A DNA stretch of 64,000 bases from an uncultured Clostridia bacterium (GTDB taxonomy: Bacteria > Bacillota > Clostridia > TANB77 > CAG-508): assembly GCA_947632475.1 (NCBI GenBank), contig CANRPI010000002.1, forward strand, positions 5,732 to 69,731, read 5' to 3'. How positions within the stretch are numbered: position 1 is the first letter of the stretch; every line of letters begins with the position of its first letter. The position numbers are program-made. Below, one piece after another: positions 21,001 through 27,000 of the stretch.

Positions 21001-24000
21001 AGTATTTTGTTTCCAGTTGTTCAGTTCCATCTATTACAGATAACCAATCACATTGTGTTTGATTTTTTAATATGCTTATCAATTGACTATAATCTTTTCT
21101 TGGCATACATATATCAATGTCATCATCCCATGGAATAAAACCTTTATGTCGTACTGCTCCTAATAATGTTCCTCCACATATACAATATATTAAATTATTT
21201 TCATCACATATATTAGCTACTTGTTCCAAAATTTTTAGTTGTATTTCTTTACATTCTTTAGATGTTAATAATTGCTTATTTTCTGTCTTCATACTCTTTC
21301 CTCTTTCATTATATTCATTCTATATTCAGTACTGCTTTCATAAGCTTCCATATATTCTTTTATCATTTTTTTCATATTAAATTTATTTATACTATCTTCT
21401 CTTGCAACTTCTCTAACTCCATAATCTAATTTATTTAAGACTAAATTATTTAATATTTCTATGTAATCTTTTAAATTATTTGCTATAAATCCATTTTGAT
21501 TGTTAATTATTACATCTCTATTTCCTATACAATTACTAACAATACATATTTTTTTCATATACATTGCTTGCAATAAAGATATTGGTAATCCCTCCCATAA
21601 AGATGCAAGTATAAAAATATCTTGTTCATTGAGAAGTTTTAAGACTTCTTTTCTGCTTTTCCATCCTGTTATATTAATATTAGAGCTAATTAATTTATTG
21701 CTTAATTCTCCTTCTCCTATCCAAGTAAATTCATATTGTGGAAAATTTTCGGCTATTTTATTAAACATTCTTGGATTTTTTGAATAGTCAATTCTTCCTA
21801 CTGTGCATATTTTTAAATTTCTATAATTTATTTCTTTTTCTTTAAGTCCTTTTGTTTCTTCTTCTAATTTTTCTATGTCTATTCCGTTATTAATGCAAAT
21901 TGCATTTTTATTTAATTTTTTAGCTTCTAAATATTCTCCATTTGAACATCCAATTATGGTACATTCTGGATTAAACATAGCTGTAATTTTTTCAATTAAC
22001 CAATATATATTCCTTTTTAATTTTGAATCATCTCTTTTCAAAAATGAAAAACCATGTGGATTATAAAACATTTTTACTTTTTTCCCACTGACAGCTATTC
22101 TGCCTAAAACACCTGCCTTTGATGAATGTAAATGTACTATATCAGGATTTTCTTCTTTTATTACTTTTTTAATTTCTTTTAATGCTTTTATATCTTTTTT
22201 TGGATTTATACTTCTAGTAAAGTTTTTTATCTCTATAAATTTTACTTTGTCACTAAAATCTTTTTTAAAATTTACTGGTGTTTCTTTTCTTTTTCCATAA
22301 ACCACTATTATTTCTAAATCGTCAATTGTTTTATTTACCAAGTCCATTAAAACACTATAGACCCCTCCGCCAAATGATTCTACTATATGTACGATTTTTT
22401 TCTTCATTCTTTTCAATTAAATTACTCCCTCATGTTTTTACTTTTTAACTGATAAAATTATTTCAAGTCTTAATATATTTATAAAAAATTATTTAGAAAG
22501 CACCTCTTCCTGAAAAAATACTATTTATGGTTTTTAAAAATATTTTCATATCCATTTTTAGTGAATAATTTTCTGCATAAAAAGCTTCCATATTAACTCT
22601 ATCCTCATAAGTTGTATCACTTCTACCATTTGCAGCCCAATAGCCTGTAATTCCTGGCTTGACACTATGTACTTTTTTCATTTTTTCTCCAAATTTTGGA
22701 ACTTCACTGTCAACTATAGGTCTTGGCCCTATTAAGCTCATTTCTCCTTTTAGAACATTCCAGAACTGGGGCATTTCATCAATACTTGTTTTTCTTAAAA
22801 ATTTTCCTAATTTAGTTATTCTTGGATCATTTTTTAATTTATGATTTTCTTCAAATTCCTTTCTTGCCTCTTCATTTTCTTCTAAATATTCTTTTAGTTT
22901 TTCATCTGCTCCTATTACCATTGTCCTAAATTTATATAACCTAAAATGCTTTCCATTTTTTCCTATTCTTAACTGTTCATAAAATATAGGTCCATCATCT
23001 TCTTTTAGAATTTTTCTTGCTACATATATAACTATGGTTATTGGAATTAATGAAATAACACCAAATAGTCCAAATATTATGTCTACAAATCTTTTAATAA
23101 AATTTCTAAATATATGAGATCTATTTTTTGATTTATATTGAACTAAATTGCTAATTTCTAGCTGTATTTCATTACTTAAATTAGAGATTTTCTCTAATTC
23201 TTTCGTCTCCATCTTTTTGCCCCTTTCAAAAAAATAAAAGTAAATTTGGAATCTCTGAATATTATTAGATTTCTCAATTCTTCATCTACACTTTTGCCAT
23301 GTAAATAAGCGATATTCAACTTAGAATAATTAAACATTTAATTTAATTACTCACCTAAATATTTCTAAATAGGATTTATGCTATATTCCAAATTTTTTTA
23401 AACACATTATTCCTATATTCATTGCTGAATTAAAGAAATAATCTCCTGAATGTCCATTTTCACATTCGTATTTTAATTTTTTTCTTTTGACATTTGCTCT
23501 ACATTTGTAGCATTTACTTGCTATGTAGTTTCTTTTAACTTTTGTTACTATAATAGAATCTTTGAATGCCTTATAATTTAAATAGTTAGTAATTCTTCTT
23601 CTTAAATAAATTGGACTGTATTTTCCAACTCTTTTTCCAAAATGAATATTTATATCTTCATTCATGTCTGCTATTGAAATAATTTCTGCTTTGTTTTCTT
23701 TACAAAAATCTACTATTTGTTTGCTTACTTCATGTGCATACCAATTGCTAATGTTGTTTAATTTTTGCCAATACCTTTGATGGTCTTTTATTCCATAATT
23801 AGCTCCATTTTGTCTATGTTTCTTTATTTGTTTTAAAATTATAGAAGTCTGCTTTCTGTATTCATTTCCGCCTTTTATGAATTTTGTTTTTATGATATTT
23901 TTTTCTTTGTCAATTACTACACATATTGCAAAACTATCACTGTTTGAAAAAGCTACTCCGCAAACTCTTATATTTTTCTTATACATTCTTGATTTTATAG

Positions 24001-27000
24001 GAGATACATCTTTAACTTCTTTTTTGGTTGGAATATGAATCATTACATATTCCTTGTTTAGTACAATTGTCGGAGATAGAATTTCATTATTTTCTTTAGA
24101 GTTTGTATCTCTTATATTTGCTTTATACCAATTCCAAGTTTTGCCATTAAATAATTTAACTTTTAAACTACCTTCTGCAAAATCTTTATACATTCCTTTA
24201 TAACAAACAATGCTTGCATTAAATTTACTTGGTTTTGTTGGCATTTTTAAGTTTGGATTTTTATCTTTTGTTTCTAAGTATGCTTTATATTTTTCTTGAT
24301 AAGTTTTTGCACTTCCTATTGCATAATTAATTGCTGCTCTTCTTAAATAAACTGGCACATCTAAATCAAAATAGTTTTCTGGTTTAATACCATTTTTGGA
24401 TTTTAACGTTAGTTTTTCTAATTCTCTTAAGCATTTTTGATTTGATAATTCTAAAAATTCCAAATGTTCAAATATCAAATTAAAATATCTTAATGCTGTT
24501 TCGTTAAATATTTCCTGTGTTATCTTTATGTATTGCTCATAATTTGTATATAATCGTCTTTTTTGGGTTACAATATAGTATCCTTTTTTATTTGCTTTAC
24601 TTTGCATTTTGCTCACCCTTATGTTCGTAAAGTTGAAAACTTTATGATATAAAGAAATTTAATAAAATCTTTAGGAAACAAAAAAATCAATAAAACATAC
24701 TGCTTTATTGATTTATAGTTTTACAATTTATCTAAATATTTCTTCTTTGTACTATAAGAAGAATGTACATATCTATTTAGAGTTATATTCACATTAGCAT
24801 GTCCTAAAAGCTCGCTAAGTGATTTTACATCCATTCCAATTCTCATACAATTAGTTGCAAATGTATGCCTAAGAATATGAAAATTATATTTTGGTATTTG
24901 ACAAATCTCCAAACATTTTTTAAAAGAATCTTCATAATTTCTAGGCTCTATATATTTTTTAGTGCCTGTTAAAAAGTATTCATTTCCATTATATTGATTA
25001 GTTTTCTTTAATAATTTAATAATATTTACTAATTTTTTTGGTATAGGAATTTTTCTATTTGAATTTTTTGTTTTTGGACTATTAATTTGTATTATTGTAT
25101 TATTTTTCCCTCTATAAACTCTTTGTATAGTTTTATTAATTATAATTAAATTTTCTTCTAAATTTATATTATTCCAAGTTAATGCACATATTTCGCCTAT
25201 TCTAAGTCCCATATTTAAACATATAATAATACCAATATTTTTTAGATTATTACTCTCTAAACAATATTGCTCTAATTTCTTTATTTCTTTTTCTTTTAAG
25301 ATATTTATTTCTTTTGTTTCACTTCTAGGACTTGAAATTAAATCTAATGTATAGTTCACTTTGAATTTTATTTGAATATATTTTAATATAGATTTAAAAA
25401 CAGATAATACATCTTTTACTGTTTTGGTTGCAATATTCCCTGAAAGATAATCAATATATATGTTAAAATCATAGGTTTCAAAGTAATAAATACTTTTATT
25501 TTTAAAATAGCTAAGAATATACTTATCAATAATATATCTATATCTATAATATGTCGATTCTTTAACAGCTGTTTTTTTATATAAAAGCCATTTATCAGTT
25601 GCCTCCTTAAAAAGAATAAACTTCTTTAAAATTTTCATAGTATTAAAGCTCCTTTCTTTAAATAAAAAATATCTTTCTAAAAATTTAGTCGAAAAATTGT
25701 ATAAAACTATTGAATTTTATTTTTACTTATGTTAAAATAAAAAATAATGTAATTAATCGTAAAGTTTTCAACTTTACGATTTTAATTTTAAAAAAAGCAA
25801 CTCAAAATAAATGCCGTTATATGGCAAAAATAAAAGTCAAAGTTTTTATACCTTGACTTTTATTTTTAGTTATTAAGTTATTAAAAAGCTCTTGAGGAAA
25901 AATTTCTTTATTTATCTTTTTTTTACATAAACAATTCTTTTTTTGCTAATTCTTGATTTAATTCACCAGTTGCTTGAACAGCTTCCACTTGTCCTTCAAC
26001 AACTCCAAATAATCCTTCAAGAAATTTAGTAGCACCTTGTTTAGCTTTATTATATTGGTCTTCATCAATATAATTATTATCATGTAAGAAAGCAAGATAA
26101 GCAAATATATTACTTGAAAGTAATTGAAATATTTCTTCTCTAAACTGTCCTTTATCAAATAAAGTCTGGCTAAAATGTTTCTCAAATATACTTTCTCTAC
26201 CTTCAAATAATGTAGTTACTAATTCCTTTAATCTTTCTAATGCACCTTCATGTTGTTTTATAAGGTCTGTCATTGGTACAAAGAAATAGTTTTCTATTAA
26301 TTGCTCCCATGCTTCTGTTTCATCATCAAAAGTATTATCAACTCTTGCTAAAACTGTGTCTAGCATATCTTGTGTCATCTCTACTTTAAAATTTGCATTA
26401 TTAAAAGATTCTGTTATTAATGCTTTCAAGTTTTTTAAGCCCATTCCATATTTACCAAATATAGCTACAACTACAAAATTTTTAGATGCATCTTTTACTG
26501 AAGCATCAAATTCTCCAATTAATAACTCTCTATTTGCATATGTATGGCATACTCCATTAAATCCAAAAAATAATCCGCACTTATCATAATTATCTGGTGG
26601 ACAAAATTCTAGTAACCATTCTTTATATGAATTTTGACTTGCTACTAATACTCTGTCTCCTTGGTCATTCCAGCACCTACCATGATTAGCCCAGCACATA
26701 GTTTTATCTTCAGATACAAAAAATGTATGAGAATCGTCTGGAACATATGTACTACTTGGCATAGCATAAGCTTCTGTTTTTAAGATTGAAAACTTATCTC
26801 TTGCTGCAAGATGATTTTTATTAATAACTATTTCTCCTGGATCTATTGGATTTATTTCTTCTTCTAAATTATTATCCATGCAATTATACCTCCTAATTTT
26901 ACATAAATAATTCTTTTTTTGCTAAACCTTGATCTAGTTCTCCTGTTGATTGAACAGCTGCCATTTGTCCGTCCATGATATTAAATAATGCTTTGAAGAA

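Follow-up and report, generated by a model that had tools for sequence, protein, structure and literature searches.

A nuclease-dead TnpB relative, an omega-RNA-derived scaffold and an invertible promoter at the head of polysaccharide operons in Clostridia: a candidate RNA-guided regulator

TldRs are nuclease-dead TnpB proteins that act with adjacent guide RNAs (gRNAs) to repress a competitor of a linked gene (10.1101/2023.11.30.569447; 10.64898/2026.09.22.753285). Only three TldR clades (fliC, csrA and oppF) have been characterised, and the roles of most nuclease-dead TnpB clades are, according to the same authors, unknown. The present analysis concerns a 411-aa TnpB-like protein encoded on contig CANRPI010000002.1 of an uncultured Clostridia bacterium, within a stretch of 64,000 nt (the window; G+C content, 26%) in which nearly all genes lie on the minus strand. 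Four of six defining features of TldRs are found here: TnpB homology, loss of the catalytic triad of the RuvC nuclease, a non-transposon context, and an adjacent scaffold related to omega-RNA. The dead TnpB and its RNA appear to be the first cistron and the leader of a phase-variable polysaccharide operon and presumably act as an RNA-guided regulator, a reading that is given a probability of roughly 0.55.

A TnpB fold without its catalytic triad

The open reading frame (ORF) at 23381-24616 on the minus strand encodes a protein with the TnpB/Cas12f fold. The NCBIfam model guided_TnpB gives a weak but full-length match (48.5 bits against a cut-off of 100, residues 43-401), and the Pfam family Cas12f1-like_TNB is matched at E 2.7e-5. 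A search of the Protein Data Bank (PDB) with the window protein as a single sequence returned no match, whereas a profile search succeeded and matched solved Cas12f/TnpB chains. Moreover, an AlphaFold model built with 33 homologues (mean predicted local confidence, pLDDT, 88.4; predicted template modelling score, pTM, 0.78) matches Cas12f, ISFba1 TnpB, ISDra2 TnpB, and the solved dCas12f (9n9c) end to end in Foldseek, at E values of 1e-15 to 1e-9 and template modelling (TM) scores of 0.5-0.62. Family and structural searches thus agree with the TnpB layout that a preliminary description of this DNA had read from the sequence. Exact look-ups of the window protein and of P0178 found no record. 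The ORF starts with GTG; an in-frame ATG at 24607 has a better-spaced ribosome-binding site (RBS), AAGGG, and may be the true start.

Catalytic columns were located by aligning the window protein with remote relatives (20-25% identity) that carry canonical motifs and that were taken from a family-profile search of 1.84 billion representatives. The motifs VDLG, IVFEnL, and naDlNAa of these relatives fall on the catalytic residues of Cas12f chains whose structures are solved. At the same columns, the window protein has A222 in place of the RuvC-I aspartate, A316 in place of the RuvC-II glutamate, and F394 in place of the RuvC-III aspartate. The first two substitutions had been proposed in the preliminary description, and the alignment with D-E-D relatives and solved Cas12f chains, in which the window protein has neither the Asp nor the Glu, bears them out. 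The third aspartate had been thought to be kept, but the residue in question lies two positions off: the catalytic RuvC-III Asp stands two residues before N396 in the D-x-N-A-A-x-N-I block, where the window protein has F394, whereas D392 in HSGDYFFNSAMNIG occupies position -4 relative to N396, at which intact relatives mostly have N or H. Because the RuvC-III column reads F394 and not D392, all three catalytic residues are gone. In an alignment of ~260 sequences, the triads of the close family read APA, AAF, STY, APY, etc., and never D-E-D, which occurs in 29 remote relatives at 20-25% identity. Judged from these columns, the protein should be unable to form a canonical RuvC site. Despite the loss of the triad, the bilobed fold is retained, as is the zinc finger noted earlier (C369/C372/C385/H389), which is invariant across the family. 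The protein is a domesticated, nuclease-dead relative of TnpB.

One database holds 324 homologues at E<=1e-3, and at E<=1e-30 the family comprises 124 clusters (50% identity) in a representative library, with full-length ORFs conserved across 30% to 70% identity. A scan of one genome per species yielded 46 loci, hosted by Clostridia, Lachnospiraceae, Eubacterium callanderi, E. limosum, Acetivibrio, Blautia, Bariatricus, and Frisingicoccus. Several genomes carry four to seven copies, each heading its own locus and 50-78% identical to its paralogues. The window has one copy, and the clade around it seems to be single-copy per genome. An ordinary multi-copy insertion sequence (IS), named in the preliminary description as a possible refutation, is made very improbable by this pattern. 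Upstream neighbours of the dead TnpB-like genes are recombinases or housekeeping genes and otherwise heterogeneous, and a scan of them found no tnpA at any locus. In the window, too, the earlier observation that no tnpA adjoins the gene and that its neighbour at 24721-25638 is a tyrosine recombinase (Phage_integrase) is correct.

The nearest intact relatives are annotated as IS605 OrfB/TnpB and have the N-terminal Pfam domain PF27142 (Aq_aa04) in common with the dead proteins; in the intact example that was fetched, tnpB lies 3 nt downstream of a Y1 transposase gene. Transposon ends and a target-adjacent motif (TAM) could not be read from the intact relatives, since all contigs of P0277, P0290, and P0321 show one insertion context. 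Two PF27142-type relatives, P0290 and P0321 (L053 2501-3766 and L058 181-1596), are found at a single, constant site in many samples, and the stop codon is followed by a neighbouring gene after only 78-100 nt; they may be further domesticated or immobile copies. The dead TnpB proteins themselves are a conserved family, not a decaying IS.

A conserved scaffold RNA and an invertible promoter

The 168-bp gap at 23213-23380, which separates the TnpB-like gene from the gene for an initiating sugar transferase (Bac_transf), had been pointed out in the preliminary description as the place where an omega-RNA scaffold would be encoded. A structured RNA of ~132 nt does lie there (23245-23376, minus strand), as judged from alignment, RNAalifold, covariance-model (CM) searches, and counts of base pairs. 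The segment is conserved in the window and in loci L001-L009; it starts 4 nt past the stop codon, ends with CAGAGnTnCCAAA, and comprises hairpins P1 and P2, a long-range helix P3, and an inner hairpin P4. For the close clade, RNAalifold predicts 31 pairs, with compensatory changes in 16 of them. In an alignment of 37 sequences, which was itself fitted to the CM, double changes occur in 27/31 pairs, and 90.4% of cells are paired compared with 67% in column shuffles and ~40% when partners are slid; none of 500 shuffles reached the observed values. The minimum free energy (MFE) z-score of the region is -2.4. The full-length model, R1, matches the window at 23240-23380 with 127 bits, and the CM finds the RNA on the strand of the gene, directly 3' of the stop codon, in ~35 loci, including those whose TnpB-like proteins are only 30% identical. 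Protein and RNA co-evolve. A scan of 22-26 kb of the window against Rfam found no family, and its matches are attributable to chance.

The ancestry of this RNA was assessed with a second model, R2, restricted to the 5' half (P1, P2, and the GCAYCGCC strand). R2 matches a tnpA-linked, PF27142-bearing IS605 relative right after the tnpB stop codon with 38.3 bits (E ~1e-7), while the best chance matches in the same search reach at most 14 bits. The full-length model R1 matches this IS605 region weakly (10.5 bits), and a sequence-only nhmmer comparison between the RNA and the IS605 omega-RNA region detected no homology; an 11-mer, AGTGCTACGAG, common to the IS605 region and to the 3' end of the Eubacterium scaffolds was noted by eye. 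Because a covarying RNA follows the stop codon and R2 matches the IS605 region, the RNA in the gap is the retained omega-RNA scaffold of the ancestral element.

In two loci, the RNA lies upstream of the TnpB-like gene (L010, 9810-9954; L011, 9843-9992), which is then directly followed by the transferase gene. Protein and RNA can thus occur in either order, but both stay between the switch described below and the glycan genes.

Sequences beyond the scaffold show further features. In the window, the post-scaffold segment TTTACTTTTATTTTTTTGAAAGGGGCAAAAAG (23213-23244, minus strand) comprises the candidate guide position as well as the RBS from which the transferase would be translated. Loci of the Eubacterium clade have a covarying hairpin, GGGAACGnnGnCCnCnnCGTTCC, at a distance of 20-26 nt from the scaffold end, just before the next RBS (L015 11560-11610, L017 11680-11730, L022, and L038). 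A 17-26-nt sequence of this hairpin recurs in frame in paralogous TnpB-like ORFs, where it encodes a 'VGNAALSVP' insertion (L017 10929-10954, L015 10793-10811, L018 1278-1294, L036 5430-5446, L043 526-541). These matches cross loci: the L015 leader corresponds to the ORF copy of L017, and vice versa. In an Acetivibrio metagenome-assembled genome (MAG), three of seven loci carry the same segment of 17-20 nt, TTAGATAAGTTATTATA, immediately 3' of the scaffold (L027 2024-2043, L032 11430-11450, L039 5234-5251). As the segment is identical in three loci whose downstream genes differ, it travels with the RNA module, and it is either a scaffold extension or a shared guide.

On its upstream side, the TnpB-like gene adjoins a 1.15-kb invertible segment. 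Two inverted repeats (IRs) of 24 nt, 96% complementary to each other (proximal arm, 24625-24648; distal arm, 25756-25779), bracket the gene for the tyrosine recombinase (24721-25638, minus strand; 305 aa; Pfam Phage_integrase, E 1.4e-25), and the proximal arm ends 9 nt upstream of the TnpB-like start codon. The IRs are conserved in relatives: perfect repeats of 19-29 bp, of the partly palindromic type TTTCGTAAAG...CTTTACGAA, bracket the recombinase gene in 7/7 relatives that have one. Recombinase and TnpB-like gene are co-directional in five loci and opposed in three. When L008 is compared with L009, the segment between the IRs aligns in the opposite orientation (81% identity), the sequence downstream of it is collinear, and the breakpoints coincide with the IRs, which shows that the inversion is real; L006 and L007 are also inverted exactly between the IRs. 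Both orientations are seen between relatives only, and the one other contig of the window's species (L057) has the same orientation as the window.

The segment carries a promoter. A TTGAnn-17-T(G)nTATAAT motif is present at the same place in 8/8 loci, beside the 5' end of the recombinase gene and directed away from it through the IR. In three loci (L006, L009, and L010) it points toward the TnpB-like gene (ON), and in five (the window, L002, L004, L007, and L008) it points away (OFF). The predicted outward promoter of the window, TTGAAT-17 nt-TG-n-TAAAAT, lies at 25710-25738 on the plus strand and faces away from the TnpB-like gene. In the OFF orientation, the terminator hairpin of the recombinase gene adjoins the TnpB-like gene. 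This terminator-like hairpin with its U-tract was read from the sequence at 24679-24713 (minus strand, 3' of the recombinase gene), having been missed by a simple terminator scan because its stem has fewer than three G-C pairs, and equivalents occur in L002, L007, and L008; it would insulate the TnpB-like gene when the switch is OFF. The recombinase, described earlier as the neighbour, is adjacent as stated but has a role of its own: as invertase, it belongs to a self-contained promoter switch by which the TnpB-like gene is controlled.

The distant loci have no recombinase nearby. In most of them, perfect IRs of 17-32 bp enclose 170-480 bp and stop 20-60 nt short of the TnpB-like start codon; these are classic short invertons, whose invertase is presumably encoded elsewhere. 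Each Eubacterium inverton in L015, L017, L021, L022, L036, and L018 contains two copies of a direct repeat, TGGTCA-N5-6-TGGTCA, 100-250 nt upstream of the TnpB-like start, which may be a binding site of a regulator or a recombinase accessory factor. Just outside the distal IR of the window, a perfect 18-bp hairpin (AAAAATAAAAGTCAAAGT / ACCTTGACTTTTATTTTT; 25826-25867) resembles a bidirectional terminator.

Polysaccharide operons and possible modes of action

Downstream of the scaffold lies a Wzx/Wzy-type polysaccharide operon (7258-23212, minus strand), recognised from library matches of the encoded proteins. It begins with the Bac_transf initiating sugar transferase (22493-23212, minus strand; Pfam), followed by GT1, LicD, a Wzy-like membrane protein, GT1, GT2, GT1, and a flippase, and then by a glycyl-radical enzyme with its activase, UDP-galactopyranose mutase, an acyltransferase, an IspD-like cytidylyltransferase, and a short-chain dehydrogenase/reductase (SDR). 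The glycyl-radical enzyme (PFL-like plus Gly_radical, 666 aa) and the radical-SAM activase, at 11901-14655 on the minus strand, are unusual for a glycan locus.

The link to polysaccharide genes is family-wide and no local accident. A Bac_transf gene is the next gene on the same strand in ~27 of the 46 loci. Among the three downstream ORFs of 44 loci, Pfam detects Bac_transf (23), GT1 (14), GT2 (13), sugar epimerases/dehydratases (13), and Polysacc_synt_2 (8). Because glycan genes lie downstream and upstream neighbours are heterogeneous, the module of dead TnpB and RNA marks the 5' edge of the glycan locus. The order of inverton, dead TnpB, RNA, and polysaccharide operon recurs across Clostridia, Lachnospiraceae, and Eubacterium, and the TnpB-like gene, the RNA, and the glycan genes form one predicted transcription unit downstream of a phase-variable promoter.

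Within the reading preferred here, a single transcript in ON cells would yield the dead TnpB, the RNA scaffold, and the glycan enzymes, whereas in OFF cells (the orientation of the window) the promoter would be directed away and the terminator would stand against the TnpB-like gene. The protein would bind the scaffold to form a ribonucleoprotein (RNP) that binds DNA without cutting it, using as its guide a short segment 3' of the scaffold, and would regulate one or more targets only in cells in which the glycan locus is ON. RNA-guided binding is suggested by the TldR precedent and by the retained bilobed fold and zinc finger. The most likely use of such an RNP, by analogy with TldRs, would be the silencing of a competing surface-structure locus; repression itself would likewise follow from that precedent. 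The preliminary description had proposed a domesticated regulator of surface polysaccharide, and the dead TnpB, the RNA, and the family-wide glycan link bear out the core of that proposal and strengthen it, but the expected guide-target pair did not emerge.

Several observations weigh against this reading. Searches of the window (64 kb) and of the 21-kb loci, and comparisons among paralogous loci, yielded no guide-target pair above chance; the 16-20-nt guide with a matching target that had been anticipated earlier lacks a match in all three sets. Within genomes, exact matches of at least 12 nt fall only at homologous positions or in low-complexity runs, and matches of the post-scaffold segment to its own locus are no better than those to unrelated loci. 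When seeds were searched for in the DNA upstream of paralogues, the matches were no longer than 9-10-mers and had no TAM in common, and a comparison of the guide with the inverton against shuffles gave no signal in any of eight loci. A 15-nt match in L023 was rejected as a target because it falls inside an ORF and was judged a chance match. The arms of the hairpin at 25826-25867 were likewise rejected: each matches the post-scaffold segment at 13/14 nt, which 41 of 300 shuffles equal. The Wzz-led locus starting at 238, earlier named as a possible silenced competitor, is not confirmed (the ORF at 308-1156 has no Pfam match at E<=1e-4), and no guide match was found near it. Moreover, the candidate guide of the window is a low-complexity T-run; at every locus, only 13-70 nt separate the scaffold end from the next start codon; and the 'guide' position of L010 and L011 coincides in part with the RBS and the start of the TnpB-like gene. 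This spacing and this overlap also fit a cis-acting leader. Guides of known TldRs may comprise no more than 9-11 nt, and they require a TAM. The missing match is weak evidence, since it concerns only 64 kb of the genome and no TAM was at hand.

A more specific form of the same reading holds that, in gut Clostridia, Lachnospiraceae, and Eubacterium, each phase-variable capsule or glycan locus has its own dead TnpB, which would be turned on together with the locus by DNA inversion and would silence other glycan or surface loci by guide-directed binding. This form is rather unlikely. The window clade is apparently single-copy per genome, which is a further point against the preferred reading, and because of it the cross-silencing of paralogous loci cannot be a general rule. 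If the more specific form were true, the module would be an RNA-guided counterpart of the UpxY/UpxZ hierarchy of Bacteroides, enforcing 'one coat at a time'.

The alternative that survives best, although it too is rather unlikely, is a cis-acting leader RNP, in which the protein would bind the scaffold in its own transcript and control the downstream glycan genes without any guide. Such control might be exerted on translation of the first gene, on processing or stability of the mRNA, or on elongation, and would be comparable in function to the control of leaders by UpxY or LoaP. The position of every scaffold 13-70 nt upstream of a start codon speaks for this model, as does the occurrence of the RNA either before or after the protein gene, yet invariably between the switch and the glycan genes. 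Within each of the close pairs L006/L007 and L008/L009, conservation does not drop from the scaffold to the post-scaffold region; the lack of a trans target in the window, the loci, and between paralogous loci points the same way, as does the Eubacterium arrangement of a scaffold followed by a covarying hairpin beside the RBS. However, antitermination would presuppose intrinsic terminators on the minus strand within the operon; a simple scan detected none, and antitermination is unsupported for that reason. Furthermore, the entire bilobed DNA-binding architecture and the zinc finger are retained, and the mode of action would be without precedent among TnpB/Cas12 relatives: to our knowledge, no TnpB or Cas12 relative is a cis-acting leader regulator.

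It is less probable still that the target of the RNP is the inverton, whose orientation it might bias or lock once the locus is ON, for example by binding close to the IRs or to the recombinase gene. TnpB ancestrally recognises DNA junctions made by rearrangement in the biology of IS200/IS605 elements; in nearly all loci, the TnpB-like gene starts 9-60 nt from the proximal IR. This proximity is, however, simply explained by the promoter within the switch. In the window, the sequence that matches the post-scaffold segment at 13/14 nt lies ~60 bp beyond the distal IR, which would fit as well, but it is a match to a T-rich terminator and, given the shuffles, not significant, and complementarity between guide and inverton exceeds shuffles in 0/7 other loci.

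That the gene is a functionless, decaying IS200/IS605 remnant, or an ordinary IS, which lies beside a glycan locus by chance is extremely improbable: the transposon-gene ancestry, the Y1 tnpA beside the nearest intact relatives, the several copies in some genomes, and the many contigs that break near the gene would suit such an origin, but it is contradicted by the pattern of conservation, that is, by full-length ORFs down to 30% identity with an invariant zinc finger, compensatory evolution in the RNA, the same position between switch and glycan operon in unrelated genera, paralogues at 50-78% identity without near-identical copies, and a tnpA beside no locus.

If the module is an RNA-guided regulator, as the preferred reading has it, the family would add a large clade (the 124 clusters) across abundant gut Bacillota. 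Its context predicts a regulator wired both to a DNA-inversion switch and to surface-polysaccharide operons. It makes testable how several phase-variable glycan loci are coordinated in Gram-positive gut commensals, a matter that bears on phage susceptibility and immune recognition, and Eubacterium callanderi and E. limosum are culturable hosts for this question. The compact dead protein (~410 aa) and its 130-nt RNA may also interest tool builders.

Two neighbouring regions of the window deserve mention. Just downstream of the glycan operon, at 4788-6977 on the minus strand, lies a gene for a homologue of thiol-activated (cholesterol-dependent) cytolysins (729 aa) with ~250 extra C-terminal residues. 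On the other side of the inverton, at 25923-27893 (minus strand), there are tandem paralogous ORFs that belong to no Pfam family: a 168-aa ORF (26899-27405) is 56% identical to the C-terminal half of a 318-aa ORF (25923-26879), and a 102-aa ORF (27585-27893) resembles the N-terminal half of the latter. From their sequences, these look like a duplicated gene, one copy of which has been split.

Comparison with known systems

Among described systems, the IS200/IS605 TnpB proteins agree with the module in fold, zinc finger, and N-terminal domain (PF27142), as well as in an RNA right after the stop codon with the P1/P2/'GCAYCGCC' core seen in the tnpA-linked relative. They differ in their triad (D/E/D versus A/A/F here) and in their genomic setting: the module has no tnpA, no transposon ends, and no identical copies, and its position is fixed and syntenic. 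dCas12f-sigmaE is also built on a nuclease-dead, miniature protein of the type V/TnpB fold with a guide RNA, and the regulatory role that we infer for the module would be a further likeness. However, the lineage here is that of TnpB/IS605, not of Cas12f. No rpoE/sigma-factor gene or helix-turn-helix (HTH) gene was found among the upstream neighbours of any locus, and no CRISPR array was found within 20-30 kb.

Compared with the recombinase-linked invertible promoters of the Hin/Gin and Fim types, the switch itself resembles the Hin system, in which the invertible segment contains an invertase gene and an outward promoter that drives an adjacent surface operon in one orientation. The recombinase here is a tyrosine recombinase instead of a serine recombinase, the IRs are of the partly palindromic type given above, and the distant loci have a short switch (170-480 bp) with the recombinase elsewhere.

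Capsule loci of Bacteroides are under invertible promoters and have as their first genes UpxY and UpxZ, a NusG-like antiterminator and its inhibitor. The likeness lies in the multiple phase-variable polysaccharide loci and in the locus-specific regulatory genes that follow the inverton and are expressed only in the ON state. UpxY/UpxZ are, however, not homologous to a dead nuclease and its RNA, and they belong to another phylum than the Bacillota considered here. A functional equivalence to UpxY/UpxZ is hypothetical and would be a parallel in logic, not in homology.

The closest parallel is with TldRs. Like these, the module has a TnpB homologue with a destroyed RuvC triad, without tnpA or IS ends, a conserved scaffold RNA beside the gene, and a stable link to a variable surface or uptake operon; the logic by which the linked locus is on and its competitor is silenced would fit it as well. 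On the other hand, the module is a separate lineage with an Aq_aa04/PF27142-type N-terminus, ~20-25% identical to the nearest intact TnpBs; it is tied to polysaccharide operons and placed under an invertible promoter; and some genomes carry several diverged copies, one per glycan locus. In the full texts searched, no description was found of a TnpB or TldR associated with polysaccharide, capsule, or an inverton; the TldR papers that were consulted make no mention of the family, and the 506 unnamed TldR candidates may include members of it. Taken together, this is apparently a novel TldR-like clade in an equally novel setting, with a solid anatomy and a function that we infer.

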